Shown: one piece after another, positions 10,037 through 50,959 of the stretch
How the letters are laid out: every line of letters starts with the position of its first letter
How positions within the stretch are numbered: position 1 is the first letter of the stretch
NCBI GenBank assembly: GCA_016699365.1
Contig: CP064973.1
Span: 575,161 to 639,160 of the forward strand
Length of the DNA stretch: 64,000 bases
Source: Candidatus Nomurabacteria bacterium
Lineage (GTDB): Bacteria; Patescibacteriota; Minisyncoccia; Phycocordibacterales; UBA9973
Reading direction: 5' to 3'
Translations under genes and position numbers: made by a program
The notes under the pieces: generated by a model
What the model was told of the DNA's origin: nothing
The model's input: only the letters and a program-made list of their open reading frames with translations
Database searches by the model: none

Positions 10037-11697
10037 ATGACTCAACGCGAAGCCCTAAACATACTAAAAACTGGTGCGAGTGTATTTCTAACTGGCGAAC
10101 CCGGCGCTGGTAAGTCTTATGTTATTCGTGAATACGTAGATTATCTCCATGAGCACGGTATTGAGCCAGCTATTACAGCTTCGACCGGTATTGCTGCGAC
10201 ACATATACACGGGCAGACTATTCACTCATGGAGTGGTATTGGAATAAAAGATTTTTTGTCTCCATATGACTTGGAGGCATTGTCAGAAAAAGAATATCTA
10301 GTAAAACGCTTGAAGAACACAACTACACTTATAATCGATGAGATTTCTATGCTTTCTAGTTCTACTCTAGATTGTGTAGACAAAGTTTGTCGTAAACTTC
10401 GAGATACAGACGAACCTTTTGGTGGAGTTCAGGTTGTACTCGTAGGAGATTTTTTCCAACTTCCACCGATTTCAAACGCAAATAGTTTAAAAGATTTTGC
10501 TTATAATTCTAAGGCATGGACTGCTCTTGCTCCTGTAGTTTGTTATTTATCCGAACAACATCGCCAAGAAGATCCAGAGTTGCTGTCATTACTATCAGCA
10601 ATCCGCAGAAACGAAGTCGAAGAAATGCATTTTGAATATATACAGTCTCGTATAAACACAGGTGAACAAATTTCAGAATCTATAACTCGTCTTTTACAAA
10701 AAATGTTTCTGTTGATGCATTGAATTCACAATCTCTAGGCAAGCTTACTGGTATGGATCACAAGTACAACATGGATTCAAAAGGCAAAGCTTCTATGGTC
10801 GAAGCTCTAAAAAAAGGATGTTTATCTCCGGAGGTTTTAGTACTAAAAAAAGATAGTGTGGTTATGTTCACAAAGAACAATCCACAAGCTGGTTTTGCAA
10901 ACGGAACACTAGGCAAGGTTGTAGATTTCGATAGCTTGTCTCACTACCCAATAGTTCTAACTCGCAGTGGTAGACGGATCACTGTCGAACCTGCTGAATG
11001 GTTAATCGAAGAAGACGGTAAAGTGCGCGCGCGTATATCTCAGCTTCCACTCAGACTCGCTTGGGCGATCACTGTTCACAAGTCACAAGGTATGTCACTC
11101 GACGCAGCAGTGATGGACTTGCGTGATGTATTTGAATACGGCCAAGGCTACGTTGCGCTTTCTCGTGTGCGAACACTCGCTGGGATATATTTACACGGTA
11201 TAAACCAGAAATCTCTCCAGGTTCATCCAGGGGTTCTAGAGACAGATGAATCTTTTCGCAACAAGTCCACAGACGCTGCATATTATTTTGAGTCACTTGA
11301 TAGCTCTGCTATAAAAATCATGCATGATAACTTTATCAAAGCTTGTGGTGGTAGTGTTGAAAAGTTAGCAGCCGACAAGATGTCTAAAAAAACCAAAGAT
11401 AAAACTGAAGAGAAAACTCTAGCGTTACTAGAAGAGGGTTGCTCTATTGAAGATATAAAAGAGCGAAGAGGTTTTACTGAAGGTACAATCATCGACCATA
11501 TCGCCAACCTTGTAAAAAATGGAAAATTTGAAAAAGATCGAGTCCGAGAACTTTGTTCAAAAGATTTGCTTGATTGCCTACCTTCTATATTCAAGGCTTT
11601 CAAGACAGAAGGTTTTGAAAAGCTCGCACCCGTGCATGCATATCTAAAAGGTACATATACATACGACGAACTCAAGCTTGCGAGGATTCTATACTAG
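10037..11697 (+). CDS. PIF1/RecD-family 5'-3' DNA helicase with a C-terminal HTH domain, interrupted by an apparent -1 frameshift
   Basis: N-terminal part (GEPGAGKSY, IIDEISM, VGDFFQLPP, EQHRQ) ends at a TGA at 10721-10723. The C-terminal part (AITVHKSQGMSLD, YVALSRVR) continues in the -1 frame. One extra T in the T4 run at 10692-10695 restores ...SITRLFTKNVSVDALNSQ... Start taken at ATG 10037 (the track used a TTG at 9995 inside the upstream terminator). Confidence 0.7.
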
Positions 11698-12395
11698 TGA
11701 AATCCTTCTACAAACAAATCATAATCGATTGGATTTAAACTTTTTATTTTAGCTACAAGTTCGTTGCAAGCCGATTCTTGGCCGCATATGTATATATCTG
11801 AATTATTGAAATCATATTTGCCTATATGATCTTGAATATAGCCTTTTGTGCAATTTGAATTTTCTTCAGGTCTTGAAACTGTAAAGTTGAATTCTATTTT
11901 GTTATTTTGGTGAGTTAGATTTTCGAAATAGTCTTTATACAAGACTTCGTTTTCAAATTTACTTCCAGTAAATATAGTGAGTTTTTCCAGATCGAGCATA
12001 TCTTTGAAATATTCTACAAGTCCCTTTGTCACACCAGCACCAATACCAAATCCAAATAAATATACTTTTTTCCGATTCATTTTATCTACAGTGTTTAGTC
12101 CTAGTGGTCCCATTATTTCGAGTTCTTCTCCAGTCATATCCTTGGTCCAAAAGAGGGTAGACATCTTACCATTTGGAGTAAGTCGCATGGCTATTTTTAT
12201 TATGTCTTTTTCTTCTGGACTAGAAGCTATCGAGTACGCTCTGCGAATTTTCTGGCCATCGATATTTATAAACAGATTTACAAAAGCTCCAGCCGAGAAA
12301 TCTAGGGGTTCACTGAGCTTTATCTCAACTTCTTTTGCAGTCTTCGATAAGTCGACAATTTTATTTATTTTTCCTTTTATTATTTTTATTTTCAT
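11694..12395 (-). CDS. FAD/NAD(P)-binding oxidoreductase (ferredoxin-NADP reductase-like module)
   Basis: 233 aa; RAYSIAS (RxYS FAD-binding motif), GPLG, Gly-rich LFGFGIGAGV NAD(P) site; its ATG overlaps the stop of the upstream membrane gene (ATGA at 12392-12395). Confidence 0.75.
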   Translation of the reverse strand: MKIKIIKGKINKIVDLSKTAKEVEIKLSEPLDFSAGAFVNLFINIDGQKIRRAYSIASSPEEKDIIKIAMRLTPNGKMSTLFWTKDMTGEELEIMGPLGLNTVDKMNRKKVYLFGFGIGAGVTKGLVEYFKDMLDLEKLTIFTGSKFENEVLYKDYFENLTHQNNKIEFNFTVSRPEENSNCTKGYIQDHIGKYDFNNSDIYICGQESACNELVAKIKSLNPIDYDLFVEGFH

Positions 12396-13012
12396 ATAGT
12401 TTTTACTATTAGCGCTTTTCGCTCTCGATTTTTAAAGTAGGCCAGTGCAGTAAATATCGTTACGAGGATCATCGATACTGCTAGGTCTATGTGTCCATAA
12501 GTTAGAAATACATATAGCGAACTCGAGTAGAAGTATACATAAGAGAGCTTCTGAATTCTTTTCCAATTATCACCGAGTAACCTTTTAGAAAGACTATTTG
12601 ATGTTATGAGCAAGATTATAGCGGTTATATCTCCCATATGAGCAAGTACAGCATAATTCACCATTGACCAATATTCTAGCGTAAAAAAGCTGTTTAGGTA
12701 TCCGCCTGGGTCCATGATTATTTTAGCAAATATAAACGATACGATTATAGATGCAGACAGAACACCCGCCCCTTTTCGCAGTATCACAAGTGGTCTGATC
12801 CATTTATTTTCCATAAATATATCTGCCATTGGTCTCACAATCATCACGAAAAATAGAGCTACGTGTGAGATGTTGTATATATTTGTGATGTCGGTTGCGT
12901 TGAATGTATTTGGCGAAAACACCAAGACAAGTGGCAAGATCATCATCGCCAGTATAGATATCCCGAGTAATATTTCCTGTGTGTATTTTATTGTAGTTAA
13001 GTATTTTTTCAT
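12392..13012 (-). CDS. ferric-reductase-like transmembrane protein (MsrQ/YedZ-type heme-binding domain)
   Basis: 206 aa, about six TM helices with conserved His in the TM segments; 4-nt overlaps with both neighbours suggest translational coupling. Confidence 0.6.
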   Translation of the reverse strand: MKKYLTTIKYTQEILLGISILAMMILPLVLVFSPNTFNATDITNIYNISHVALFFVMIVRPMADIFMENKWIRPLVILRKGAGVLSASIIVSFIFAKIIMDPGGYLNSFFTLEYWSMVNYAVLAHMGDITAIILLITSNSLSKRLLGDNWKRIQKLSYVYFYSSSLYVFLTYGHIDLAVSMILVTIFTALAYFKNRERKALIVKTI

Positions 13013-13917
13013 ATATTTTTATTTACAACCCCAGATTCTGTTATGGTTATATATTTTATTTTTGATTCTGCAAATAGTACGTTCACATCTTTTATAGGTA
13101 AGCTCAAGAACACTTTTGCGAACGCTTCTGCGCTAGATCCACTTTCGTGTATTATGCTTGCTGAGATTGTTCCACTGTCAGTATTGCCGGTTCCAGACTT
13201 GTTTAGTATGTGATTTATTTTATTGCCAGATCTATCCCAAACCCTTTTGTATGTTCCACTTGTGGCTAGGCTTTGGTTGAATATTTCTACGGGTTCATTT
13301 TTATCTGGATTGACTGGATTGTAGATACTGAAGATAAATTTTCTATTGTGTTCGTCTAGACCTCGTGTGCATATATCTCCGCCTAGATTTACAATCACTC
13401 CACTTACACTTTCATTTTCAATTATATTTTGGGCTATTTTTTCGGCGAGATATCCCTTCAAGACTCCTCCGAAATCCAATTTTTGGCAATCAGCTAGAGT
13501 GATTTTATTATTCTCTATATCGATTTTTACACTATCAAAATCAATGTCATAACATAGATCTATCGGGGTGTCTTGTGGTGTAAGCTCTGTATATGTTTTG
13601 TCATACCCGAAACGCTCAATCTGTACGAGCGGATTAAATATTCCTTTCGTTTTTTTATAAAGCATAAATGCTTCACTTATAACTTCCATAAACTCTCTAG
13701 AAACATTCATCTCTTTTTTTTCATTCAGCTTTGATAGTTCACTGTCAGGTAGGAATCTAGAGAATTTTTTTTCATATTCTTTTATTGTGTTTAGCGCCTG
13801 CACTCCAAGTACACCTGCTTTTACCTCATCATTAGATATGATTGATATAAAGCACTCTGTGCCCATCGCTTTCATCTTAAATTCATATTCTTTATTCATA
13901 ATGCAACTATAAAACAA
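13009..13917 (-). CDS. apbE: FAD:protein FMN transferase ApbE
   Basis: KAMGTE, DFGGVLKGY, LVNLGGD and TSGTYKR motifs; the true start may be an internal Met (MKAMGT...). Confidence 0.85.
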   Translation of the reverse strand: MFYSCIMNKEYEFKMKAMGTECFISIISNDEVKAGVLGVQALNTIKEYEKKFSRFLPDSELSKLNEKKEMNVSREFMEVISEAFMLYKKTKGIFNPLVQIERFGYDKTYTELTPQDTPIDLCYDIDFDSVKIDIENNKITLADCQKLDFGGVLKGYLAEKIAQNIIENESVSGVIVNLGGDICTRGLDEHNRKFIFSIYNPVNPDKNEPVEIFNQSLATSGTYKRVWDRSGNKINHILNKSGTGNTDSGTISASIIHESGSSAEAFAKVFLSLPIKDVNVLFAESKIKYITITESGVVNKNI

Positions 13918-13956
13918 AGAGATGAATAATAAATGAACGGGGTGTAGAATATAGAT

Positions 13957-14625
13957 ATGAGAATACTTTTAGTCGAAGACAACGAAAAATTGGCCAAATA
14001 TACCAAGCAAATGCTCTACGAGGAGGGGTATTCTGTAGATGTGATTTCTGATGGTATTGCCGGTGAACGTATGGCAAGATCCGGTTCGCATGATCTCTTA
14101 ATCCTCGATATTATGCTTCCGTCCAAGGATGGCATAGCAGTTTGCAAAAGTCTCCGCGAGAGTGATGTAAATTTGCCCATAATCATGATCACAGCAAGGG
14201 GAGAGGTAGATGACAGGGTCTTAGGTCTCGATAGTGGTGCCGATGACTATCTAGTGAAGCCGTTTGAGATGAAAGAGCTTTTAGCCAGAATTCGCGCACT
14301 ACTCCGTAGGCCAGAATCAAAGATTAGTGAGACTCTCTCTATTCAAGATATAACCCTGGATAGTACAAAGCATCAGGTTTTCAAAAAAGGTGTTCTGATC
14401 CCTCTAACACTAAAAGAATATTCGATTCTCGAATATCTTATGCGCAATGTCGATACAGTAGTTTCGCGTGAGCAACTTCTCGAACATTGTTGGGATTTTG
14501 CATATAGTGCATTTAGTAACATAACAGATGTTTATATAAAAAGATTGCGTGAAAAATTTAAAGATACAGATGAAAAATATATTAAAACAATTCGAGGTGT
14601 CGGGTATGTCTTCAACTCCAAGTAA
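13957..14625 (+). CDS. OmpR-family two-component response regulator
   Basis: Receiver domain (LLILDIMLPSKDG, phospho-acceptor Asp) plus a winged-helix output domain. Confidence 0.9.
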   Translation: MRILLVEDNEKLAKYTKQMLYEEGYSVDVISDGIAGERMARSGSHDLLILDIMLPSKDGIAVCKSLRESDVNLPIIMITARGEVDDRVLGLDSGADDYLVKPFEMKELLARIRALLRRPESKISETLSIQDITLDSTKHQVFKKGVLIPLTLKEYSILEYLMRNVDTVVSREQLLEHCWDFAYSAFSNITDVYIKRLREKFKDTDEKYIKTIRGVGYVFNSK

Positions 14626-15610
14626 TTTTAAAAAAGCCGTATTGAAACTGACTGTGTATTACACGTTGGGTGTTTTTGCTGTGATCCTAGTCTTTAACTT
14701 GATAGTTTATAGTCTTTTTTCTAATACTTTATATAAACAGTACGAAGAAGAGCGCGAGAATTCTTCTTATGAACACGAAGATGATTTTGAAGAGGGGGTT
14801 GAATCCAGAGTGGAAACAACCCAAGGCAACCTACTGGGTATATTTGTAGTTTCAGATGCAATCATACTTCTTTTGACAGTGTTGATTTCATATTTATTAT
14901 CCAAACGCACACTTGCACCTCTGGAGATTGCATATAAAAAACAAGCACGCTTTGTTGCAGATGCAGCGCACGAACTTCGCACACCGCTTGCTGTTATGCG
15001 TGCCGGTGGAGAGGTTATATTGCGGAGCGACAGAAAAGTCTCTGAATATCAAAAATATATACAGGAGAATCTTGGCGAAGTAGAGAGACTGACAAATATT
15101 TCAAATGACCTTTTGATTTTGGCTCGTAGTGACAATCAAAACAAGAAACTTCTTGCAAAGATTAGCCTTTCAGATAATTTGAATGCCGTTATAAATATCA
15201 TGGAGGTATATGCAAAAAGTAAAAACATAACGCTAAATTCAAAGATTGATGGAGATATCTTTATAAATGGCAAAAAAGACGACATCACAAGACTGGTTAT
15301 GAACTTGGTCAAAAATGCTATTGATTACAATAAGATTGGTGGCTCTGTAGATATAGGGCTCAATAAAAGTCACAATACTGCACACATAATCGTCAAAGAT
15401 AATGGAATAGGAATCAAAAAAGAAGCACTACCTTATATATTTGATCGTTTTTACAAGGCTGATAGCGCAAGATCAGAAGATTCTAATTCTGGGTCTGGGC
15501 TAGGGCTCGCTATAGCAAGAGATATAGTACTCTCTCACGGTGGTGAGATAAGAGTAGAAAGTATTTTCGGAGAAGGGACTACATTCTCCATAGATTTGCC
15601 TTGTGTATAA
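14606..15610 (+). CDS. sensor histidine kinase
   Basis: Start at MSSTPSNFKK, overlapping the regulator gene by 20 nt; two TM helices, H-box HELRTPL, N-box and G2-box GSGLGLAI. Confidence 0.85.
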   Translation: MSSTPSNFKKAVLKLTVYYTLGVFAVILVFNLIVYSLFSNTLYKQYEEERENSSYEHEDDFEEGVESRVETTQGNLLGIFVVSDAIILLLTVLISYLLSKRTLAPLEIAYKKQARFVADAAHELRTPLAVMRAGGEVILRSDRKVSEYQKYIQENLGEVERLTNISNDLLILARSDNQNKKLLAKISLSDNLNAVINIMEVYAKSKNITLNSKIDGDIFINGKKDDITRLVMNLVKNAIDYNKIGGSVDIGLNKSHNTAHIIVKDNGIGIKKEALPYIFDRFYKADSARSEDSNSGSGLGLAIARDIVLSHGGEIRVESIFGEGTTFSIDLPCV

Positions 15611-15686
15611 AAGGCATCCTCGTTCATTTTCTATTCATAATCTTTTTGTAGAGTATAAGCATTAGTAATAATTAACTAATAAATAT

Positions 15687-15857
15687 ATGGCACAATATGT
15701 ATGTTTAGATTGCGGATGGATTTACTCTGAGGTAGACGGTGATCCATCTCGCGGAATAGCTCCAGGTACAAAATGGGAAGAGCTCCCAGATGATTTCAAA
15801 TGCGCAGATTGCAGTGTACGAAAAAGCGATACACACATGTGGCAGAAAATTGATTAA
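15687..15857 (+). CDS. rubredoxin
   Basis: 56 aa, MAQYVCLDCGWIYSEVDGDPSRGIAPGTKWEELPDDFKCADCSVRK... with the two CxxC pairs and GTKWEELPDD core; below the ORF cutoff. Confidence 0.85.
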   Translation: MAQYVCLDCGWIYSEVDGDPSRGIAPGTKWEELPDDFKCADCSVRKSDTHMWQKID

Positions 15858-15864
15858 AAAATAT

Positions 15865-16242
15865 ATGAAAAAAGATTTTAGAAATGTATTTATAACAACT
15901 TGCATGATAACCTGGACTTTGTTTTGGGGAGGTCTGTCATATCACAGGTATGTACTGGTGCAAGCTGAAGCACAGCATATAGCACAAGTTGCCGAAGACA
16001 ATAGAATTGTCTTACTTGCAATACAACAAGAAAATATCCGTAAACAACAACTTGCCGCTGAGCAAAAAAGACTAGCGGCTGCGCAAGTTATCGCCAAGGC
16101 ACAGACGGTTTCTGCCATACCTACACAAGTTTATATTCCTCCACAACCTCAAGTTGCCCAGGTGTCACAGCCAGTGTACACACCACCAACTCCAGTCCAA
16201 GTCGTAGTAACCAAACCTTCACGTCAGTCACGTGCAAGTTAA
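15865..16242 (+). CDS. hypothetical membrane-anchored protein (coiled coil and Pro/Gln-rich tail)
   Basis: Start at MKKDFRNV, downstream of the rubredoxin stop; one TM helix, then QQENIRKQQLAAEQKRLAAAQ and PPQPQVAQVSQP. Confidence 0.45.
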   Translation: MKKDFRNVFITTCMITWTLFWGGLSYHRYVLVQAEAQHIAQVAEDNRIVLLAIQQENIRKQQLAAEQKRLAAAQVIAKAQTVSAIPTQVYIPPQPQVAQVSQPVYTPPTPVQVVVTKPSRQSRAS

Positions 16243-16263
16243 TTAATCTAATAAATAATAATT

Positions 16264-16620
16264 ATGAAAAAATACCTAATACCCACATTCGCATTTCTCT
16301 TGTTCTCAGGCTTTGTCGCATATGCGACAGTGAAAACACAATCAGTGCTTGATACAGTCGAGCCAGAGCAGGAGATTGCTCAAGTCGAGAAAGCTTTTGA
16401 TGTTTCAGACACACTAGCTATCTCCGATGTATTTGAAGATCCAAAGCCGATTGCAGAAAACATTCCAGTTGTATCTGTTGTCACGCAGGCTCCAGCACAA
16501 AGTACAGAAACTATCAGTGATCCTGTACCAACAGAGTATGTGTATAGCTATGAAGATGGACATGATCAAGATGAGGATTATGGCGGAGATGACGAAGAAG
16601 ACGAAGGCGATGATGATTAA
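16264..16620 (+). CDS. hypothetical secreted/anchored protein with a poly-acidic C-terminus
   Basis: Signal/anchor MKKYLIPTFAFLLFSGFVAYA; C-terminus EDGHDQDEDYGGDDEEDEGDDD. Confidence 0.5.
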   Translation: MKKYLIPTFAFLLFSGFVAYATVKTQSVLDTVEPEQEIAQVEKAFDVSDTLAISDVFEDPKPIAENIPVVSVVTQAPAQSTETISDPVPTEYVYSYEDGHDQDEDYGGDDEEDEGDDD

Positions 16621-16646
16621 AAATCTTCATTTGCTATAATATTCGC

Positions 16647-17309: not shown

Positions 17310-17315
17310 TCTTTA

Positions 17316-17755: not shown

Positions 17756-17756
17756 A

Positions 17757-20389: not shown

Positions 20390-23373
20390 ATGGATAAATA
20401 CATACAAAGCATATCTAAAAAATACTTAGATACTCAAACAAGTGAAATGGGATATCGTACGGATTTTGAAAATTTTCTCGAAACTATTTTTTCAAAAGAG
20501 CAAAAATACCATATTCATCATGATGCAAAAGCTGTGGGTGGAAATAAGCCTGATTTCGTTGTACTTAAAAACCAAATACCAGTTTTGTATATTGAAAATA
20601 AAGATATTGGTATTGATTTAGATAAAATAGAGAAGTCTAATCAGATGGATAGATATTTTGGATATGATAACCTTATTTTGACTGACCAAATAGAATTTAG
20701 ATTTTATCGAAACGGAGAAAAATATGATGAATCAATTAAAATCGCAACATACGATAAATCAAATAGAACGATTAATCCTATCCCAGAAAATTTTACACTT
20801 CTAGAAAAAACTATTATAGATTTCACTCTTTCTCACAAAGAACCAATTAAACGAGGGAAGCGTCTTGCTCAAATTATGGGTGGAAAAGCTCAACGCATTC
20901 GTGACAATGTTTGTGACATGCTTACTTCTAATAATGAAAAATATGCAGAACTTTTAAATATAAAAAAAGTAGTTACTGAAAATCTTGTTTCGAATTTAAA
21001 AGATGAAGACTTTGCTGATATGTACGCGCAAACCCTTGTATATGGACTTTTTGCGGCTCGGTATAATGATAAGACAAATGATACTTTTTCTCGTGCTGAA
21101 GCTCGAGATTTGGTTCCAAAAACAAACCCATTCCTACATTCTTTTTTTGATCACATCGCAGGAGCGTCTTTTCCTGATAGATTGCGGTTTATTGTAGACG
21201 AACTTTGCGAAGTTTTTTCTCATGCAGATATTCAAAAAATTCTTCATGATTTTTATGGAAAAGAAAAAGATAATAAAGATCCAATAATTCATTTTTATGA
21301 AGATTTCTTGAAAGAATATGATTCAAAAAAGAAGATGGAAATGGGAGTTTTTTATACTCCTCGTCAAGTTGTGAAGTTTATTGTGCGTTCTGTTGATGAA
21401 ATTTTGAAAAAAGAATTTGGTCTTGCTAAAGGTCTTGCTGACGCAGAGAAAATTAAAATAAATAAAAAAGAAATCTATCAAGCTCAAAAAAGAACAAAGG
21501 CTGAAGAAAAGAAAGATGGTTCAATAATAGAAGTTCAAAAAGAATATCACAAGGTACAGGTTTTGGATATAGCGACAGGAACAGGAACATTTTTAAACGA
21601 AGTTATTGAACATATTCACAAGAGCTTTATAGGTCAAGAAGGGCGTTGGGAGAGTTATGTTAAAGAAAACCTTTTACCTCGCCTTCACGGTTTTGAGCTT
21701 ATGATGGCTTCATACACAATTGCGCATTTAAAGCTTGGGATGACTTTATTTGATTCTGGGGTTACTAATTTAAACCAACGTTTGGGTGTTTATTTGACAA
21801 ATACACTCGATGAGCCAAAAGACTATTCAAATCAAGGTTCACTTTTTGGATTTATGGATGCTATTGCTGAAGAGTCAAAAAGTGCTTCAAGGGTAAAATC
21901 TGAATATCCAATAATGTGTGTAGTAGGAAATCCGCCGTATTCCATTAGTTCTAGCAACAAGGGTGAATATATTACTGACTTAATTAATGTATATAAAACA
22001 AAACTAAAAGAAAAAAATATACAACCAATTTCAGATGATTATATTAAATTTATTAGATTTGCTGAAAACCTAATAGAAAAAAATAACTCCGGAGTTGTTG
22101 CAATGATTACAAATAATTCTTTTATTGACGGGATTATTCATAGGCAAATGAGAAAACATTTACTCGAGACTTTTAATACCATTTACATACTTAATTTAAG
22201 TCCTAGGAATCATAAAGAAGATCAAAATGTTTTTGATATCAAACAAGGTGTTTCAATAAATATTTTTGTTAAAAACTCGAAAAAAGACAAAGTTTTAGGA
22301 GATGTTTTTTATGCAGAGATAGCTGCGAAAAGAGAAGAGAAGTTTCGGGTATTGGATGATAATAATATAAAGTATGAAAAGTTAGACTATTCAGATCCAT
22401 ATTATTTTTTTGTTCCAAAGGATTTCTCAAATATTAAGGAATACAGCAAAGGATTTATTTTATCGGACATTTTTATGCATCAAAATGCTGGATGTGCTAC
22501 TGGTAAAGATGATCTATTGGTAAATTTTAACAAAAAGATTTAACCGATAAATTAAACAATAAAAATATTATATTTGATGAATCTGATATCGTTGAATATA
22601 ATTATAGGATATTTGATAGAAGATACTTTGTGTATGATAATAAACTTATACAAAGGTTACGGGAAAAAATAATGAAGCATTTTAAAAATGATAATATTGG
22701 ATTAATTTCAACAAAAATATTATCAAGTGACTCATACAAACACTCTTTCTTAACTAACCTTGTGGGAGATAGATGTCTTATATCAAATAAGGGTAAAGAG
22801 GCAAATTATTATTTTCCTTTATATCTTTACACAGATCAAAATGAAAAAATACCAAACTTGAATAAAGAAATTTGGAATAAGATAAATGAATTAGTGGGGG
22901 AAACTAAACCAGAAAATATTTTGGATTATATTTATGCTGTCTTACATTCGTCTACATATCGTAACGAGTATAAAGAATTCTTAAAAATTGATTTTCCTAG
23001 AATTCCATATCCAGAAAACAAAGAAGAATTTTGGAAACTTGTTCCACTTGGCACAAAACTGCGTGATTTGCATCTTATGACTGCTCCAGAATGCAATAAA
23101 CTTATTACTACTTACGGTATTAAAGGCAGTGATACTGTTGAAAAAATTATATATAAAAATGAAAAGGTGTATATAAACGAAACTCAATACTTCGGGGGTG
23201 TCCCAGAAGTTGCATGGAATTTCTATATAGGAGGTTATCAACCCGCTCAAAAATGGTTAAAAGACCGAAAAGGACGAACTCTTACTAATTCTGATATTGA
23301 GCATTATCAGAAAATTATTGTAGTTTTGGTGGAGACAGATAAGATTATGAAGAAAATAGATCAGTTATTATAG
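20390..23373 (+). CDS. MmeI-like Type IIL restriction-modification enzyme (PD-ExK nuclease, gamma-class N6-adenine methyltransferase, target-recognition C-terminus), interrupted by an apparent -1 frameshift
   Basis: N-terminal nuclease motif KPDFVV...IENKD; methyltransferase motifs GVFYTPRQVV, LDIATGTGTF (motif I), VVGNPPYS (motif IV); C-terminal GGYQPAQKWLKDRKGR. The ORFs 20390-22543 and 22630-23373 fuse into about 965 aa if the A5 run at 22532-22536 is A6 (...NFNKKDLTDKLNNKNIIFDESD...). Confidence 0.75.
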
Positions 23374-23376
23374 AAT

Positions 23377-23955
23377 ATGTCTATGAATACTAAAGACAGT
23401 AAAATTGTATATGTGTTCATTGACGCATCCAATCTATGGCAGTCACAAAAAGTGAAAGGTAGGATGTTTGATTTTGAGAAATTAAAAATATTCTTAAAAG
23501 AAAAATTTAATGCTAAGGAGCTCCAGATATTTTACTATACCGCTTATCCGAAAGAAGGGACACGAGAACAAAGTCAAGATGGAAAACATAAATTTTACAC
23601 ATATCTTAAAAAGGGACTTGGTTTTATTGTGCGTAAAAAGGAATTAAAAAGAATTGTTCAGCATAGTGATTTGGGTGATTCAATACAGGAAAAAGGAAAT
23701 ATGGATGTTGAAATGACCATTGATGCGATTCATCATTGTAAAAAGTACGACTCCGCGGTTCTTTTTACGGGAGATTCTGATTTTCTCGCTTTAGTTAATT
23801 ACTTGAGAAACGGTGATAAAAAAGTATATATTTTTTCTTCAAAAAACAATGTGTCTCAAGAATTAAGAACAGGGAGTGACGGTTATTTTGATGTTTTAAA
23901 TATTAGTCAGGATATTTGGGGTAGAGATCTTAAATATAAGGAAAATAAGACCTAA
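23377..23955 (+). CDS. NYN-domain (PIN-like) nuclease
   Basis: IVYVFIDASNLW... and LFTGDSDF acidic-residue motifs characteristic of the NYN/LabA family; 192 aa. Confidence 0.7.
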   Translation: MSMNTKDSKIVYVFIDASNLWQSQKVKGRMFDFEKLKIFLKEKFNAKELQIFYYTAYPKEGTREQSQDGKHKFYTYLKKGLGFIVRKKELKRIVQHSDLGDSIQEKGNMDVEMTIDAIHHCKKYDSAVLFTGDSDFLALVNYLRNGDKKVYIFSSKNNVSQELRTGSDGYFDVLNISQDIWGRDLKYKENKT

Positions 23956-24075
23956 AAAACAAAGTAGCCCTCCTTTCGGAGGGCTACCCTTGGATGTAAT
24001 ACCCTTAAAGTTTATGGTAAACCTTAAGACAAACTGAGTATATCAAATCTATTCAAAAAGTCAAAGTTTTCCACA

Positions 24076-26226: not shown

Positions 26227-26277
26227 ATATTACTCGAGTATTTTGAATAAAATAAAATAACCCTTTCGGGTTATTGG

Positions 26278-26913
26278 TTATTGAAATAGTTCTCTGATCA
26301 AATTAAAGAAACCTTTTTTCTTTTGTTCTGATCCTGATTTCTTTTCCTTTGGTTTGAATTTACGCTCTTTAATAATCGAGTCGTGTACAAACTCTATTTC
26401 TTCGTCTGACAAGTATCCGTATCTCAGTGCGAGTCCTGGAAAAAGATTGCTATGATTTCTCCTTGCTCTTACAAAGTTGGCCGAGAAGCCAAGTGCCATA
26501 GCCGTGACATCCACAGCTTTCTCTATGTGTTTTATATCTTTGTAATTGTGATAGTACAAATATATATGAGAGAGCTCGTGGCTTATAGTAGTTACGAATA
26601 CATCAAAGTCTAAAGTTATGGTATTGGATATCTCTATGATAAACACGTGATCAAGGAGCTTATTTTTTCCTTCAATAAATATTAAAGGTACGAGTACATG
26701 CGCCGGCTTGTTCAGGTCTTTTTTAGAGACAACCTTTATCTTGTGGGGGATTTGCATAACATTTTTGATCTCCTGTATTGCCCACGCATACTCCCTCTGT
26801 TTAAAGAAAATTTCGGCAGTTTTGAGACTTACGGGTTTCTTGGTTACGTTTTGTAAAGTATAAAGGTACTTCATGATTTCGTTCATGGAAAGAATATTTT
26901 TACTATTGTACAA
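26278..26913 (-). CDS. putative zinc metallopeptidase (HExxH)
   Basis: 211 aa; ISHELSHIYLYYHN contains HExxH; lysine-rich C-terminus. Confidence 0.45.
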   Translation of the reverse strand: MYNSKNILSMNEIMKYLYTLQNVTKKPVSLKTAEIFFKQREYAWAIQEIKNVMQIPHKIKVVSKKDLNKPAHVLVPLIFIEGKNKLLDHVFIIEISNTITLDFDVFVTTISHELSHIYLYYHNYKDIKHIEKAVDVTAMALGFSANFVRARRNHSNLFPGLALRYGYLSDEEIEFVHDSIIKERKFKPKEKKSGSEQKKKGFFNLIRELFQ

Positions 26914-26975
26914 TAAATTATAAATATAGTCAATTATTAATAATAAACGGTAAGTTTCCTTGAGCCATATTATTT

Positions 26976-43348: not shown

Positions 43349-43708
43349 ATGGCAACGAAAAAAGCAACAAAAAAATCAGTGTCAAAGAGCGAAGAATTCG
43401 CTGTTATTTCTACTGGTGGAAAACAATACAAAGTAAGTGCTGGGGATGTCCTAGTAATCGAAAAACTACCTGGTACATACAGTGCAGGGGATGAAATAGT
43501 ATTCGACAAGGTATTACTTGTAGATAACGGTAAAGATACAACTATCGGAACTCCTCACATATCTGGAGCGAAAGTCACAGCAAGTTTTATTGAAAACGGA
43601 CGACATCAGAAAGTCATAGTGATGAAATACAAACCAAAGAGTCGCTACAAGAAAACAAACGGCCACAGACAAGAATTCACAAAAGTTAAAATCACAGTTA
43701 TAAAATAA
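43349..43708 (+). CDS. rplU: 50S ribosomal protein L21
   Basis: ...FAVISTGGKQYKVSAGDVLVIEKL... L21 signature after a Lys-rich N-terminal extension. Confidence 0.9.
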   Translation: MATKKATKKSVSKSEEFAVISTGGKQYKVSAGDVLVIEKLPGTYSAGDEIVFDKVLLVDNGKDTTIGTPHISGAKVTASFIENGRHQKVIVMKYKPKSRYKKTNGHRQEFTKVKITVIK

Positions 43709-43744
43709 AAATATCCCGCAATTGCGGGATATTTTTATTTTATA
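43708..43744. terminator. bidirectional terminator
   Basis: ATATCCCGC-AATT-GCGGGATAT followed by TTTTATTTT. Confidence 0.65.
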
Positions 43745-43751
43745 ATCAATC

Positions 43752-44363: not shown

Positions 44364-44379
44364 GTTTGTTGATTATATC

Positions 44380-45798
44380 TTAAAACATATCAGCATCATC
44401 TGCTTGTCTTGGTTTTTGTGGTGGCTTGAATCCTCCAAGGTCTCCTTTTTCAATCGGTAAGTAAGAACCAGTCTTATCATCGAAATACAAATCTACTTTA
44501 CCAGTAGGACCATTTCTGTGTTTTTCTATCAATATTTCTGCTAAGTTTGTTCTCTCAGATTGATCTTTGTACTTATCTTCTCGGTGAATAAACATAACCA
44601 CGTCAGCATCTTGCTCGATAGAACCTGAGTCACGAAGGTCAGATAGTCTAGGCTTGCCTCCACGAGACTCAACCGCACGAGAAAGCTGTGATAGGGCAAG
44701 TACTGGCACATCCAAATCACGAGCCAAACCTTTTAGAGATCGTGATATTTCGGTAACTTGGTTAACCATAGAATCATAGTTTTTTGAAGTTGTCATAAGC
44801 TGTAGGTAGTCGATTATGATCAAACCTAAACCATGCTCACTCTTCAATCTTCTAGCTGTAGCACGCATTCTCATTATTGAGTTTCCAGCTTGATCATCGA
44901 TATATATAGGAGCCTTAGAAAGCTTGTCTAGAGCATCTCGCAAGTTTGAAAATTCTGAGTCCGCAGATAGTTTTCCAGTTCGAAGATTCCAAGCATCTAC
45001 TCTGGATTCAGAAGCGAGCATTCTGTCTACCAACTGTTGAGCACTCATCTCAAGAGAGAAGATTCCAACTGGTATGTTTTCTCTTGTTGCAGCCATACGA
45101 GCAATATCAAGCGCAAGCGCAGTTTTACCCATAGAAGGTCGAGCCGCCAAGATAATCAAGTCAGAATTTTGCAATCCGGAAAGCATAGTATCAAGATCTT
45201 TAAATCCTGTAGGAACTCCACGAAGACCACCTTTTGTTTCGTGTAATTTTTCAATACGTTCCCAAGCTGTAGAGAGCGTTTGTCTAATACTTACAAATTT
45301 TTGACCCTTTGGACTAGATGTAATACTGAAAATTCTTTTTTCAGCAGTGTCCATAATATCTTCAATCGTGTCATCTGATTCACTAAAACCTAAATCTGAA
45401 ACATAATCAGCTGCATCTATTAATTCACGTAGTATATATTTTTTTGAAACTATAGATGCATAGTGCATCGCATTTGTAGCAGAAGGAACAGAAGCCACCA
45501 GCTCAGACAGGTAACTTGCACCTCCGATATTGTCCAACTCTTTTCTCTCAGATAGTAAGTTTGTTACTGAGACAAGGTCTATAGGTTGGTTTTTTGAAGC
45601 AAGATCAAGCATAGCTTGAAATATAAGCTTATGTCTTGTGCTATAAAAGGCATCTGAAGCCAATGTCTCGGCAATATCAATAATCGCTCCAGGTCTAACC
45701 ATAAGAGACCCTAGAACAGCCTTTTCACTCTCCATACTTTGTGGAGGAACGCGGATTTTGTTGTCTTGCATCTTTGCCATTGGGCTTGATTGTACCAC
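44380..45798 (-). CDS. dnaB: replicative DNA helicase DnaB
   Basis: DnaB N domain, Walker A ARPSMGKTALAL, RecA-like C domain; 472 aa. Confidence 0.95.
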   Translation of the reverse strand: MVQSSPMAKMQDNKIRVPPQSMESEKAVLGSLMVRPGAIIDIAETLASDAFYSTRHKLIFQAMLDLASKNQPIDLVSVTNLLSERKELDNIGGASYLSELVASVPSATNAMHYASIVSKKYILRELIDAADYVSDLGFSESDDTIEDIMDTAEKRIFSITSSPKGQKFVSIRQTLSTAWERIEKLHETKGGLRGVPTGFKDLDTMLSGLQNSDLIILAARPSMGKTALALDIARMAATRENIPVGIFSLEMSAQQLVDRMLASESRVDAWNLRTGKLSADSEFSNLRDALDKLSKAPIYIDDQAGNSIMRMRATARRLKSEHGLGLIIIDYLQLMTTSKNYDSMVNQVTEISRSLKGLARDLDVPVLALSQLSRAVESRGGKPRLSDLRDSGSIEQDADVVMFIHREDKYKDQSERTNLAEILIEKHRNGPTGKVDLYFDDKTGSYLPIEKGDLGGFKPPQKPRQADDADMF

Positions 45799-45898
45799 AT
45801 GAATCTTTTTGCAAAATATAAAAAGTGCATTAAGTGGTTGGTATCATGTGGATTGAGCAATACTTCATTAAAAATGATATTTTTGCTAGAATTACCTT

Positions 45899-46906
45899 AT
45901 GCAAAAACCAGAATCAATTGTCTTAACAGGAGATAGACCAACAGGCAGACTTCACTTGGGTCACCTAGTTGGATCACTACAAAAAAGAATAGAATTAGCA
46001 GAGAACGCGAAGCATTCTTTTTACATGATTGCTGATATTCAAGCACTTACCGACAATGCCGACAACCCAGATAAAGTTCGAAACAATGTACTCGAAGTTG
46101 CTCTAGACAATCTTGCGTGTGGACTAAAACCAGAAAAAACAATCATGTATATTCAATCTGAAATTCCTGAGATTGCTGAGTTAACAGTTTTGTTTATGAA
46201 CCTAGTTACAGTAGCAAGACTAAAGCGAAATCCTACAGTAAAAGCAGAGATGCAGCAAAAAGGTTATGGTGAAGATGTACCCGCTGGTTTCTTGGCTTAT
46301 CCGATATCCCAGGCTGCAGATATTTTAGTCATGAAGTCAAACTTAATCCCAGTTGGAGAAGACCAATATCCGGTTATCGAACAAGCAAACGAAATAGTCG
46401 ATACATTCAATCGATTGTATGGAAAAGTTTTTGACCGGATAGAACATGTTAGTGGAGGCACTGCGCGACTAGTCGGCACAGATGGAAACGCAAAGATGTC
46501 TAAATCTCTTGGTAATTGTATTTTCTTAGCAGATAGTGATGAAGCTATAGAAGAAAAGGTTATGAGTATGTACACAGACCCGAGTCATATTCGCGTGGAA
46601 GATCCAGGAAAAGTAGAAGGCAATGTTGTTTTCACATATCTAGATATTTTTGATCCAAACAAAGACGAGGTAGCTGAACTAAAGAAACAATATGAAAAGG
46701 GAGGACTTGGAGACGTAGTACTTAAAAAAAGACTTGCAGAAGTATTGAAAGAAATAATTTCTCCAATTCGCGAAAGACGTGAACAGCTTGCAAAGAATCC
46801 AAAGATGATTATGGATTTACTCGAAGAGGGAACTAAAGAAGCTCGCAAGGTCGCAGCTGAAACTATGCGCGAAGTACGAAGTGCGCTTAAAATTGATTAT
46901 TTCTAA
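45899..46906 (+). CDS. trpS: tryptophan--tRNA ligase
   Basis: TGDRPTGRLHLGHLVG (HIGH-like) and KMSKSLGN motifs; 335 aa. Confidence 0.93.
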   Translation: MQKPESIVLTGDRPTGRLHLGHLVGSLQKRIELAENAKHSFYMIADIQALTDNADNPDKVRNNVLEVALDNLACGLKPEKTIMYIQSEIPEIAELTVLFMNLVTVARLKRNPTVKAEMQQKGYGEDVPAGFLAYPISQAADILVMKSNLIPVGEDQYPVIEQANEIVDTFNRLYGKVFDRIEHVSGGTARLVGTDGNAKMSKSLGNCIFLADSDEAIEEKVMSMYTDPSHIRVEDPGKVEGNVVFTYLDIFDPNKDEVAELKKQYEKGGLGDVVLKKRLAEVLKEIISPIRERREQLAKNPKMIMDLLEEGTKEARKVAAETMREVRSALKIDYF

Positions 46907-46964
46907 GGTTGACTTTACATAAAAAACCTGATATAATATAGACAAATAAAAGATATTTTACAAT

Positions 46965-48778
46965 ATGAATATAAAAGAAAATAAAGAAAAAAAGTTGGCA
47001 TTGAAAGATTATGCACACGGAATCAAACTCATCTGGCAGCAAATTACTGTGAACCACAAAAGGGAAGTGCGTACATTGGTAATTCTGTCTTTTTTTATTG
47101 CCATACTAGACGGTATTGTTCCACTTATCTCAGGACATTTTTTTGATGCGATAACAAATATATCTACTGATATTGGGAGTGTCTGGTTTGCGCTAATTCT
47201 ACTATTAGTCGTAACTGCATTCTCAGCTATAGGTCAAAAAATTAAAGTAACAAAGAGTGATTGGGTGAATTATAAAATAATCACGACTTATCATTCTGAT
47301 GTTGCCGCAAAGTTTGTAAAACTTCCTGTGTCATACCTAAAGAATCACCCAATGTCTGAAATGGTTCAAAAGACCATGACAGCGGGTAATAACCTGCAGT
47401 CAATGTTTAGTGATGTGATTATGGAACTTTTACCAGCATTCTTGGGGATCATCGTTGCGTTTGTTACAGTTTTACGATAAACACAAATATGTCTCTAGTG
47501 CTTTTGGCTGGAGTTTTAACATATGTGCTGATTGTTCTAAGAACAGTTGGAGACGGTGCAAAATTCCAAAGAGAAAATCAAAAGCAATGGGTGCATGCAT
47601 GGAGGGCAAGGTCCGATGGGTTGAACAATATTGCGACAGTAAAACAATTTGCCGCAGAAGAGTACGAAACTGAAAAGAATCGACAAAACTACACAGTTAA
47701 AGTACTAGGTGCCCAAAGAAGACTTTGGGAGTTGTGGAGTAAAATTAATATATCTCAAAAAATAATAGTCTTAGCAACTCAAGCAGTTATATTAATCTTG
47801 TCTATAAAAATGCTTCAAGTGAACTCACTAACACCAGGTCAGGTTATTGCATTCAATGCATACGTAGGCATGGTATTTAATCCATTCTTGCGACTTGGAA
47901 ATATGTGGCGCACTATTCAGAATTCAATTATAAATGTTTCTGATGCTCATGAAATACTTTCTATTGAACCAGAAAATTATAACGAACCCGGTGCAGTAAA
48001 AAAGCAGATTAACGGAGATGTAGAATTCAAGAGCGTTGCATTCTTTCATGATGAGCGCAAGCTTGTGCTCGATGACCTATCGTTCTCTGCACCATCGGGA
48101 TCTGTAATTGCGTTCGTAGGTAAAACTGGCTCTGGTAAGACATCGCTTACAGAATTGATATATCGATTCCATGACCCAAAGACTGGCGAGATACTCGTGG
48201 ATGGAATTCCAATAGACAAATATGATCTCACAAGCTTGCGGTCACAGATTGGAATTGTCCCACAGGAACCAGTACTTTTTGACACTACAATCCGCGAGAA
48301 CATAATGTATCCTCGCAAAGATGTAAATCAAAAAGTATTGAACGACGCAGCGAAAAAAGCTGACCTGCTTGAGTTTATAAAAGACCAACCTGATGGATGG
48401 GAGACAATCGTTGGAGACAGAGGGGTAAAGCTTTCTGGCGGACAGAAACAGAGAATCGCGATTGCACGAGCACTTGTGGCCAATCCAAAAATTCTAATCT
48501 TGGATGAATCAACTTCAGCGCTCGATGCAGAGACTCAGAGAACAATTGAAAATTCCCTCAAAGAACTAATGAAAGGTAAAACTACCTTCATAGTTGCTCA
48601 TAGACTTAGTGCTGTGCGCAATGCAGATAAAATCTGTGTATTGCACAAAGGTAAAATTGTCGAAGAGGGAACTCACGACGAACTGATACAGATTGCAAAT
48701 GGACGTTACAAAAAGCTCTATGACCTGCAGTTCAAGGAAGAGGAAATCCTCATTGCTGAGCATGAGCTTGAAGATTAA
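46965..48778 (+). CDS. MsbA-like ABC exporter (fused permease and ATPase), interrupted by an apparent -1 frameshift
   Basis: TM helices 1-3 lie in ORF 46965-47480; TM4-6 plus the NBD (Walker A GKTGSGKTS, LSGGQKQR, Walker B ILILDE) lie in ORF 47489-48778. One extra T in the T4 run at 47470-47473 restores ...FVTVFTINTNMSLVLL... Confidence 0.8.
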
Positions 48779-48861
48779 AGTCCTTTAGATTTCGTTTCGA
48801 AAAGGATGGCCAGAACTCGAATTCGTAAGTACGGCACGGGTATGCCCGTTATAGCTTAGTG

Positions 48862-48896
48862 AAACCGTAAGATCTAATCTTGCGGTTTTTTATATT
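48862..48896 (+). terminator. rho-independent terminator
   Basis: ACCGTAAGAT-CTAA-TCTTGCGGT followed by TTTTTTATATTT. Confidence 0.65.
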
Positions 48897-48928
48897 TGAT
48901 GTTATAAATATTTCAAATATTGTAACGT

Positions 48929-49426
48929 ATGAATAAGTCAAAAACTGAAATCGCTAAAAAAGTTGAACTAATTAAATCAATCGATTTCACTCAATTAAAA
49001 GAAAAACTTATGGACCCCAATGAAGGCAAAGGCTGGTCCAAAGACGAGTGTAATGACCTAGAATTGCTCTATAAAGATTTTCTCGTCCTCATGCTGAAGT
49101 ATCCAGAAAAATCTATTGTGCCCACTACGATGATAGATGAATTCTGGCATGCGCACATCCTTGATACCAGAAAGTACCATGAGGACTGTAAATTGATTTA
49201 TGGAGAATATCTGCATCATTTTCCGTACTTTGGACTAAGAGGTGAGAGTGACAAAAAGGATCTTGAGGATTCGTTTACAGCAACCAAAAAACTGTGGGTT
49301 AGCGAGTTTGGATATGAAGTGGACAATCCATTCATTAAAGTAAGCATCTATACTCACAAGAAGGTTACTAACGCGAATAGTTGTAGAAATTGCGTTAGTA
49401 CATGTGCCGGCTCATGCACACGATAA
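48929..49426 (+). CDS. conserved hypothetical protein with a Cys-rich C-terminus
   Basis: 165 aa; motif FWHAHILDTRKYHEDC; C-terminus NANSCRNCVSTCAGSCTR. Confidence 0.5.
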   Translation: MNKSKTEIAKKVELIKSIDFTQLKEKLMDPNEGKGWSKDECNDLELLYKDFLVLMLKYPEKSIVPTTMIDEFWHAHILDTRKYHEDCKLIYGEYLHHFPYFGLRGESDKKDLEDSFTATKKLWVSEFGYEVDNPFIKVSIYTHKKVTNANSCRNCVSTCAGSCTR

Positions 49427-49444
49427 ATGAATTATATTTTTTAA

Positions 49445-49472
49445 AATACCCGCTTGCGGGTATTTATTTTTG
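49445..49472 (+). terminator. rho-independent terminator
   Basis: AATACCCG-CTTG-CGGGTATT followed by TATTTTT. Confidence 0.55.
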
Positions 49473-49484
49473 GTAGTAGTATAA

Positions 49485-49645
49485 AGATATCCACTGATCC
49501 GCTGACAACGGGGAGGAAAACCAAGATTACAAGGTCATCTCGCTCGAAACGAGACTGACGAAGTAGGGTGGCACCGCGTTTCAAACATGAATCGCCCCTG
49601 CGAATTTACAAACTAATGTAAGTTCGAAGAGGCGATTTTTGTTTC
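49485..49645 (+). promoter_or_regulatory. T-box riboswitch leader for aspS
   Basis: T-box core AGGGUGGCACCGCG at 49565-49578. The antiterminator fits: AGGG/CCCU and GCG/CGC helices around a UGGCACC bulge, where UGGC would pair the tRNA GCCA end. A mutually exclusive terminator AAUCGCC...GGCGAUUUUU lies at 49592-49645. Candidate specifier GAC followed by A at 49504-49507. Confidence 0.75.
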
Positions 49646-49664
49646 CTCTAGAGCTCAAAAACAT

Positions 49665-50959
49665 ATGGTAAAAGCTATACATGTTTCTGAATTGAAAAAT
49701 CATAGTGGTGAAGACGCAACCGTACAAGGTTTCGTTCATACACTTCGCGTGCAAAGTAAGATTATTTTCTTGATACTTCGTGATGTAACTGGAATCGCAC
49801 AAACAGTTGTAGAGATCAAAGATCCTGAAGTATTTGAAATTGCAAAAAATCTCTCTCATGAATCTGTTGTTAGAATATCCGGCTTAGTAAAAGACGTACC
49901 TCAGGCTCCAGGTGGATTTGAAATTGGAGTCTCATCTATCGAAGTACTCTCAGTTGCAAACCCTGAACTACCGATTCCAATTATTGAAAGGGAAATGAGG
50001 AAACAGAAGCTCCAACACGTTTTGACTATCGATGGATAGACCTACGTAAGCCAGAAAAAACAAAAATATTTAAAGTTTGGACTGAGCTCGAAAAAGGTTT
50101 CAGAAAATATTGGGATGAAAATGGGTATACCCAGCTCTACTCACCATCTTTTATGTCTACACCGTCTGAAACTGGAGCAGAAGTTTTCGAGGTAAATTAT
50201 TTTGACCGCAAGGCATACCTCGCACAATCTCCACAATTCTACAAACAAATGGGAATTGCATCTGGTTTTGAGCGCGTATTTATCGCAGGTCCAGTATTTA
50301 GAGCAGAAGAATCTTTCACAACTCGTCATATGACAGAGTTCACTGGCTGGGACTTCGAGATTGGTTTTATAGATTCACACCATGATGTTATGGACCAAGA
50401 AGAAGGAATGATTGTTTCTGGATTTGAAAATCTAAAAGCTAAATTCCCAGAGCTTGATATTACTGTTCCGAGTATACCTTTTCCAAGAATAAAAATGACT
50501 GAAGCAAAAGAAATCCTTTCCAAAGAAGGAATTGCAAGTTCTGAAGACCATGACCTATCACCAGAAGAAGAACGCGCAATATGTGAATATGTAAAAAAAG
50601 AACACAATCACGAATTCGTTTTCATAACTGATTACCACAAATCAAAATCTGCTTTCTACCACATGAGATTGGAAGAGGGATCTGACAGATCTCGTCGCGC
50701 AGACTTACTTTTCCGAGGTATCGAAATAACGACACTTGCACAACGTGAGCATCGTATAGACATACTTGAAGCTCAGGCAAAGGAGAAGGGAATGTCACTT
50801 GAAGCACTGTCTGACTATCTAAATTTCTTCCGCTACGGCTGTCCTCCACATGGAGGTGCTGGAATTGGCCCAGGACGTCTTATAATGAAGATCTTAGACC
50901 TTCCAAACGTCCGTGAGGCGACATATCTACCGAGAGACGTGAAGAGACTTAATCCGTAA
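49665..50959 (+). CDS. aspS: aspartate--tRNA ligase, archaeal/eukaryal type, interrupted by an apparent -1 frameshift
   Basis: OB-fold anticodon-binding domain in 49665-50039; the catalytic core in the -1 frame reads from ...TRFDYRWIDLRKPE... (motif 2 FRAE, motif 3 GGAGIGPGRL, C-terminus LPRDVKRLNP as in archaeal-type AspRS). One extra T in the T4 run at 50020-50023 joins them. Confidence 0.85.

Follow-up and report, generated by a model that had tools for sequence, protein, structure and literature searches.

Residual homopolymer under-calling as the probable source of four split genes in a Nanopore-based patescibacterial genome

Four genes in the window, the whole 64-kb stretch of CP064973 analysed here, are interrupted by a shift to the -1 frame, equivalent to a deficit of one base: those of a PIF1-like helicase, a single-chain RM enzyme, an ABC exporter and an archaeal-type AspRS (aspS). 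These four breaks very probably represent residual homopolymer under-calling, and the genes would almost certainly be intact in the living organism. An initial annotation of the DNA had already described the four -1 shifts, which proved to be one base short in each case, and had favoured under-calling over pseudogenes or recoding; the provenance of the assembly, its relatives, the pattern of selection and the presence of one lesion in each broken gene all support that choice. It had also proposed that one added base restores each protein, and comparison of the pieces with the restored proteins agrees, with Pfam domains that run on across the break in all four genes and alignments that continue through the junctions. 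We infer that the deficits arose in base-calling, consensus or polishing and not in the cell.

CP064973 is a circular 705,143-bp MAG of Patescibacteria (Paceibacteria, UBA9973), designated EsbW_18-Q3-R4-48_MAXAC.200_cln. It was assembled by CANU and polished with Racon, with medaka (two rounds) and with a last Racon round on Illumina data (Singleton et al. 2021), at coverages of 20.25 (npcov) and 9.42 (ilmcov) (Singleton et al. 2021, Supplementary Data 3). It is thus built on Nanopore reads and only modestly polished with short reads, as an explanation by consensus error demands. Homopolymer indels are known to persist in Nanopore consensus sequences, where they give frameshifted and fragmented gene calls, and bins below 40x require Illumina polishing, as reported by the laboratory that generated this MAG (Sereika et al. 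2022, PMC9262707). The split genes resemble those of R9-era Nanopore assemblies (described, with IDEEL-type tests, by Sereika et al. 2022, PMC9262707) in their one-base homopolymer indels, in the adjacent ORF pairs and in the domains that continue from one ORF to the next; as in those cases (PMC9262707), this MAG, at 20x ONT and 9x Illumina, lies below 40x, and the genes that can be compared are intact in short-read assemblies from its taxon. The likeness is incomplete, since the worst Nanopore behaviour concerns longer runs and those affected here have 3-5 bases (4-5 in relatives). In the proposed sequence of events, a consensus built from ~20x Nanopore data (2018 chemistry) with only ~9x Illumina polishing would have dropped one base at a few short homopolymers. 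Two T5 runs would have become T4, one A4 run A3 and, most likely, one A6 run A5 or one GG pair G; a further A8 run, shortened to A7, is neutral. Each such loss within a functional gene would put it out of frame, and gene callers would then report two fragments.

The sites in the PIF1-like helicase, ABC exporter and aspS genes were localised by alignment to relatives with ~96-99% nucleotide identity, which comprise 10, 13 and 12 distinct assemblies, respectively; most are plainly short-read, as indicated by SPAdes NODE_*_cov and MEGAHIT k141 contig names or by their origin as Logan contigs of SRA runs. Every independent same-species assembly carries one extra base at these three sites. The PIF1-like helicase gene (10037..11697, + strand, as are all features described here) encodes P-loop/PIF1, 2B, UvrD_C and HTH_40 domains, identified by Pfam on the pieces and the restored protein. 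Its upstream frame meets a stop at 10721-10723, and the split separates the PIF1 domain from the 2B and HTH_40 domains. Comparison with relatives confirmed the T4 run at 10692..10695, proposed from the start as the lesion, as one T short: T5 is found in 10 of 10 relatives, with the junction ...TRLFTKNVSVDALN, and restoration gives a protein with 99% identity to P0121 (554 aa). A nearby A6 run at 10698-10703 was considered as the lesion and rejected, as relatives retain A6 and carry T5. The ABC exporter (ABC_membrane and ABC_tran by Pfam; 46965..48778, 604 aa once restored) is likewise split at a T4 run (47470..47473). The position first suggested for this break holds, with T5 in 19 loci representing the 13 distinct assemblies. 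Here the break falls inside a domain: the upstream piece matches ABC_membrane profile positions 5-136 and the downstream piece positions 143-274, and the match becomes an unbroken 5-274 after restoration.

The aspS gene (49665..50959) encodes an AspRS of 431 aa once restored, which GenBank annotates as a non-discriminating aspartate--tRNA(Asn) ligase; Pfam and its identity to P0001 support the assignment. Its upstream frame ends at a stop at 50037-50039, and the OB-fold is separated from the tRNA-synt_2 domain. In this gene the initial annotation had placed the lesion in the T4 run at 50020-50023, with the junction ...HVFDYRWIDLR. Alignment to relatives and to PDB entry 3NEL locates it instead in an A3 run at 49987..49989, which is A4 in all relatives: 18 of 18 aspS loci (12 assemblies) carry GAAAAGGG where the window has GAAAGGG. 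The T4 run is intact and lies inside the native downstream frame (TRFDYRWIDLR). With one A added, the actual junction reads ...PIIEKGNEETEAPTRFDYRWIDLR; the restored AspRS matches P0001 at 100% identity, and its alignments to 3NEL, 1B8A and 1N9W contain no gap.

The homopolymer context deserves separate consideration, as it had been offered as an argument for error. A nearby run is in itself weak evidence, with a probability of ~0.75-0.83 that a random interval of 52-67 nt in the window holds a run of at least 4. The argument gains force from the three located sites. In relatives, the runs at these sites have 4 or 5 bases (two T5 runs, here T4, and one A4 run, here A3); ~12-13% of the bases in the window fall in runs of such length, and the probability that all three sites lie inside them is ~0.002. 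Context and direction alone cannot tell error from mutation, as natural slippage likewise favours homopolymers and deletions. The runs of 3-5 bases are also shorter than those in which Nanopore consensus errors are most typical.

The state of the sequence around and beyond each break bears on another reading, in which most or all of the genes have undergone genuine, very recent frameshift mutation and are young pseudogenes of one strain. This strain differs from all of its relatives (~96-99% identity), so that strain-specific mutation is compatible with the comparison, and natural indels favour homopolymers too. Such a history would nevertheless require the loss of AspRS and of two genes with perfect or nearly perfect conservation in a streamlined 705-kb genome. 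AspRS is indispensable, and the PIF1-like helicase, the ABC exporter and the RM enzyme, unlike AspRS, could be dispensable; no second aspS copy was found within the 64-kb window. In the PIF1-like helicase, ABC exporter and aspS genes, purifying selection is strong to either side of the break, pN/pS downstream of it being 0-0.03, with a single lesion per gene. Relative to relatives, the downstream part of the PIF1-like helicase gene has accumulated 48 synonymous and 5 non-synonymous differences (pN/pS of 0.031, and 0.015 upstream of the break), that of the ABC exporter gene 2 synonymous and 0 non-synonymous, and that of aspS 11 synonymous and 0 non-synonymous. The restored ABC protein has no non-synonymous difference over its length and, like the restored AspRS, is 100% identical to those of relatives; neither relaxed selection nor further disabling lesions were found downstream of the breaks. 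Over the ~48.6 kb of the window for which relatives match at ≥90% identity, no coding frameshift indel was found beyond the three described, which also speaks against real mutation, as does an assembly technology known for exactly such artefacts. Taken with these observations, young pseudogenes at all or most of the sites are very unlikely, and under-calling stands as the preferred reading.

The remaining indels in the covered 48.6 kb consist of a compensated pair in trpS, another in an EamA gene, and others that are intergenic. A fifth one-base deficit lies in an A7 run over the murG TAA stop (57312..57318; A8 in relatives) and alters no protein. Several other ORF arrangements were considered as split genes and dismissed: the overlapping same-strand sets 13957/14549, 33440/33984, 52476/52987 and 11694/12392/13009 are complete separate genes by Pfam, and the pairs 16647/17231 and 34940/35646, which lack a Pfam match, correspond to same-length genes in relatives. 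Use of TGA as a sense codon was also ruled out, as it is the upstream frame, and not the TGA-containing frame, that is protein-like before each junction. A tRNA scan found no tRNA genes in the window.

The RM enzyme (20390..23373; N6_Mtase, MmeI_Mtase, Eco57I and Type_ISP_C by Pfam; 994 aa once restored) differs from the other three in that the relatives hold no close allele: the best match has 79% amino acid identity. The initial annotation had called it MmeI-like, a label for Type IIL enzymes in which a gamma-class N6-adenine MTase is flanked by an N-terminal nuclease region and a C-terminal target-recognition domain in one chain that lacks a helicase motor. The MmeI_Mtase profile scores 30.6 bits, with a cut-off of 27, and Pfam gave no ResIII or helicase match in the enzyme; among solved structures the closest chains are 7LO5 (1029 aa), LlaBIII and LlaGI, and MmeI is not among the PDB matches. 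The upstream frame stops at 22541-22543, and the split separates the MTase from the Type_ISP_C domains. Frame analysis defines a 13-nt stretch, CAAAAAGATTTAA (22531..22543), that necessarily contains the missing base and includes an A5 run at 22532-22536. The restored protein shows no gap through the junction when aligned with P0241 and P0245 or with the closest homologue. Because this homologue reads AAA AAG GGG at the junction, the missing base is that at codon position 3 of the second Lys, and may be either an A (A5 to A6) or a G (G to GG). The A5 run named by the initial annotation is hence a plausible site, with an expansion to A6, and a G to GG change within 22531-22543 also fits.

It is also for this gene that a biological break has most to recommend it. 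RM genes are often frameshifted, inactivated or phase-variable in nature. The break in this Type IIL/ISP-like enzyme alone might be real, through natural inactivation or an OFF state generated by A5/A6 slippage, with the other three as errors. The locus is a strain-variable, hypervariable defence island with different systems in each relative, the intact state has no same-allele relative to show it, and C AAA AAG, as read in the zero frame, comes close to A AAA AAG, the slip-prone motif of dnaX. As in the phase-variable Type I, III and IIG RM genes ('phasevarions'), the length of a homopolymer in the RM gene decides whether a full-length enzyme is made. Unlike in 'phasevarions', the tract is only A5/A6 and sits two-thirds into the gene, and three non-RM genes in the window share the lesion. 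Phase-variable RM tracts typically have 7-8 bases or more, and A5/A6 is well under the lengths typical of such genes, as the initial annotation had remarked in calling A5 short for phase variation. No long simple-sequence tract was found in the RM gene, in which the tract is A5 and the closest allele reads AAAAAG GGG. The break falls at codon 717 of 994, far from the 5' end, and the remainder of the ORF is free of lesions and retains an entire Type_ISP_C domain. The lesion matches in kind the three judged to be errors, and the deficit rate of the window, ~1 per 16 kb, predicts ~0.2 errors in a 3-kb gene. A real break confined to the RM gene is accordingly an improbable alternative. The broader proposition that at least one of the breaks is real carries similarly low odds; it would most plausibly take the form of an RM switch or recent inactivation, and in its extreme version of a slippage-based tolerance of frameshifted essential genes.

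Slippage during expression could in principle also rescue all four proteins, by programmed -1 ribosomal frameshifting or by transcriptional slippage at the runs. The same -1 shift is needed in 4 of 4 genes, as in programmed -1 frameshifting (dnaX) and in endosymbiont poly(A) slippage, and the RM site, C AAA AAG, is one base off the dnaX heptamer. Against this, the orthologous proteins are each read from one frame, so that the shift is unconserved, and the relatives carry no recoding signal because their genes are simply in frame. The zero frame lacks a canonical X XXY YYZ heptamer at the PIF1, ABC and aspS sites; in all, a canonical heptamer or a long poly(A/T) tract was found at 0 of 4 shift sites, the RM near-match in zero-frame codons coming closest. 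Transcriptional slippage is known from poly(A) tracts of at least 9, and the 3-5-base runs here are far below such lengths. Unlike in dnaX and the poly(A) slippage systems, there are no canonical heptamers and no long poly(A), the orthologues are in frame, and the shift would have to operate in four unrelated genes. Recoding is therefore the least credible of the explanations weighed here, and it can be set aside with near certainty in favour of consensus error.

The database records of the fragments are in line with consensus error. Exact matches of fragments from the window to GenBank proteins (QQR76520.1, QQR76554.1, QQR76555.1 and QQR76557.1) all trace to one 705,143-bp contig. QQR76520.1 is the N-terminal part of the RM enzyme; QQR76554.1 and QQR76555.1 are the halves of the ABC exporter; and AspRS is divided between QQR77025.1 and QQR76557.1, the latter carrying the label 'hypothetical protein'. 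When looked up, the truncated PIF1 and truncated RM products returned no record. The truncated products occur in the GenBank record only, with 0 in Logan or ENA assemblies, despite the existence of same-strain Illumina contigs. The latter, three Logan contigs of SRR11674038 (L030-L032) reached via strain-specific neighbour genes, are 99.9-100% identical to the window. None of them crosses any of the four sites; L031 begins at 49994 and so misses the aspS site by 5 nt. Sequence identity and an Illumina adapter suggest that SRR11674038 belongs to the study that produced the MAG, although the run is absent from the supplements of Singleton et al. 2021.

The split genes are thus most likely a well-known sequencing artefact with no biological significance. 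Their consequences lie in the use of the data. As a result nr contains truncated proteins from a 'complete' CPR genome, and if the window is typical, with 4-5 deficits per 64 kb, several dozen errors are possible in the 705-kb genome, so that CP064973 would gain from re-polishing. Such fragments can mislead metabolic reconstruction, for example through an apparent lack of AspRS, and may bias both the clustering of proteins and the counting of pseudogenes.

The window has a G+C content of ~36% and a high coding density. In four plus-strand genes, encoding a PIF1-like helicase (10037–11697), a restriction-modification (RM) enzyme (20390–23373), an ABC exporter (46965–48778) and an archaeal-type AspRS (aspS, 49665–50959), a protein-like frame meets a stop and the same protein resumes in the −1 frame, as the initial annotation had described. 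The shift is −1 in all four, so each gene has either lost one base or gained two. Pfam assigns every ORF pair to one gene: PIF1/AAA_30 is followed by Pif1_2B, UvrD_C_2 and HTH_40 in the helicase; N6_Mtase, Eco57I and MmeI_Mtase by Type_ISP_C (profile 66–341 of 342) in the RM enzyme; ABC_membrane 5–136 by ABC_membrane 143–274 and ABC_tran in the exporter; and an OB-fold anticodon-binding domain by tRNA-synt_2 (4–307 of 308) in AspRS. Upon restoration of one base, the exporter’s ABC_membrane becomes a single stretch (5–274) scoring 84.6 bits, versus 28.9 and 40.0 for the pieces. Elsewhere in the window, overlapping ORFs on the same strand yielded no further split gene; these pairs are complete, separate genes where Pfam could judge.

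From the sequence alone, the shift is confined to intervals of 58 nt (PIF1), 13 nt (RM), 67 nt (ABC) and 52 nt (aspS), each containing several short runs. A random 52–67-nt interval of the window holds a run of four or more with P ~0.75–0.83, so the homopolymer argument of the initial annotation needed outside evidence. The comparison set comprised 40 loci (NCBI MAGs, ENA assemblies and Logan contigs) encoding matched proteins and their neighbours, mostly plainly short-read assemblies judging by SPAdes and MEGAHIT contig names, and sharing ~96–99% identity with the window over the broken genes. The sites proposed for PIF1 (T4, 10692–10695) and ABC (T4, 47470–47473) proved exact: relatives carry T5 at 10692 (10 loci, 10 distinct assemblies) and at 47470 (19 loci, 13 distinct assemblies). 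Restored PIF1 reads ...TRLFTKNVSVDALN, and its intact homologue P0121 is 99% identical. The aspS loss, first placed at T4 50020–50023, lies ~33 nt away at 49987, where the window has A3 and relatives A4 (18 loci, 12 distinct assemblies). With the extra A in GAAAGGG, AspRS is 100% identical to the intact homologue P0001 over 431 aa; the native downstream frame, which includes T4 50020–50023, reads TRFDYRWIDLR and aligns gapless to TRLDNRFMDLR of Thermococcus AspRS (PDB 3NEL).

At the RM break, where the upstream frame stops at 22541–22543, the closest intact homologue (P0241) is only 79% identical. The restored protein aligns gapless through the junction to P0241 and a second homologue, P0245 (NFNKKDLTDKLNN vs NFTKKGLIENLRN). 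Homologue DNA reads AAA AAG GGG and the window AAA AA- GAT, which makes the missing base the last of a Lys codon. On this comparison the base may be an A (A6 to A5), making the proposed A5 at 22532–22536 plausible, or a G (GG to G). The initial observation is partly confirmed: the sequence does contain all four breaks, with two sites exact, one plausible and one misplaced. That the RM break alone is real appears unlikely: RM genes are often inactivated, no same-allele relative exists and the contents of this defence island differ between strains, but the lesion is the same in kind as the other three and, at ~1 deficit per 16 kb, an error within a 3-kb gene is unsurprising. Between the same flanking genes (window 20390–24000, compared with loci L011 14568–17423, L012 14552–18247 and L025 1–1064), relatives carry an EcoRI-like methylase with a GmrSD/HNH enzyme, a different Type_ISP_C-type RM enzyme (1039-aa gene call; cluster representative P0271, 64% identical to the window enzyme) with an NYN-domain gene, or a Type I HsdR.

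Neither context nor direction distinguishes error from mutation, because natural slippage shares the bias of sequencing error. Relatives align at ≥90% identity to ~48.6 kb of the window, and in this part the PIF1, ABC and aspS lesions are the only frameshifting coding indels; the remainder are compensated pairs, one in trpS and another in an EamA gene, and intergenic indels in both directions. Downstream of the breaks, PIF1 shows 48 synonymous and 5 non-synonymous differences (pN/pS 0.03), aspS 11 and 0 (pN/pS 0) and ABC 2 and 0 (pN/pS 0): the broken genes are under strong purifying selection up to the present. Genuine pseudogenisation of all four is very unlikely given this selection, a single lesion per gene, the lack of other frameshifting coding indels across the covered ~48.6 kb and an indispensable AspRS in a streamlined, 705-kb genome. 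Truncated products were not found in Logan or ENA assemblies, only in the GenBank record, despite same-strain Illumina contigs. Recoding by programmed frameshifting or by transcriptional slippage is effectively excluded, since orthologues are in frame, the break sites lack a canonical heptamer and the runs are just 3–5 bases long. A fifth one-base deficit follows the same pattern with no effect on any protein: the run at 57312–57318, which overlaps the TAA stop of murG, is A7 in the window and A8 in the relatives that cover it (5 loci, 4 distinct contigs). The four breaks are very probably consensus errors, as initially proposed, rather than pseudogenes.

CP064973 is the circular, 705,143-bp MAG EsbW_18-Q3-R4-48_MAXAC.200_cln (Patescibacteria; Paceibacteria; UBA9983_A; UBA9973), with coverage of 9.42x by Illumina and 20.25x by Nanopore (Singleton et al. 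2021, Supplementary Data 3, PMC8012365). PromethION reads were assembled with CANU and polished with Racon, two medaka rounds and a single Illumina Racon round (PMC8012365). The same laboratory reported that homopolymer indels persist in Nanopore consensus, causing frameshift errors and fragmented gene calls, and that bins <40x need Illumina polishing (PMC9262707). Two same-strain contigs from SRR11674038, L031 and L032, match the window at 100% identity over 2,143 and 1,564 nt, strain-specific genes included, and a third, L030, differs by two SNPs; none of the three spans a break site. The last 20 nt of L031 (logan:SRR11674038_4840597) are Illumina TruSeq adapter (GACGTGTGCTCTTCCGATCT on the reverse complement), identifying the run as Illumina. 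In L031, genomic sequence begins at 49994, with the aspS run 5 nt away, and gives way to the adapter; this hints at a local Illumina coverage gap that would explain failed polishing there. The L030 substitutions (31021 and 31051, 30 nt apart) lie in a desaturase gene, leave the protein unchanged and probably reflect population polymorphism or substitution errors.

Other segments of the window also differ from relatives. Absent from 10 of 10 relatives, where a 220-aa gene directly follows PIF1, is a 5-kb segment (11688–16628), a strain-specific insertion. Its minus strand carries an FAD/NAD-binding reductase, an unknown ORF and ApbE; these are followed by genes for a response regulator and a histidine kinase and by two small ORFs. 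Between aspS and scpA, a 729-bp segment (50966–51694) holds one 216-aa ORF (QQR76558.1) with no Pfam match; the gap is 2.2 kb in all relatives (L001 11303–13518), with two minus-strand genes of 308 aa, faintly matching M28 peptidase, and 326 aa. At 26230–26958, the relatives’ DM13-domain gene (L011 20164–20658) gives way to an unrelated 728-bp segment, in which a 211-aa ORF on the minus strand has no Pfam match.

The truncated products all lie on one contig of ‘Candidatus Nomurabacteria bacterium’. Exact GenBank matches are QQR76520.1 (717 aa) for truncated RM, QQR76554.1 and QQR76555.1 for the ABC halves and QQR76557.1, labelled ‘hypothetical protein IPJ63_03615’, for the N-terminal part of AspRS, of which the other part is QQR77025.1. 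As probable consensus errors, the four breaks are not a biological feature; the fragments annotated as independent proteins (window 20390–22543, 46965–48778 and 49665–50959) are artefact proteins in nr and in protein clusters.
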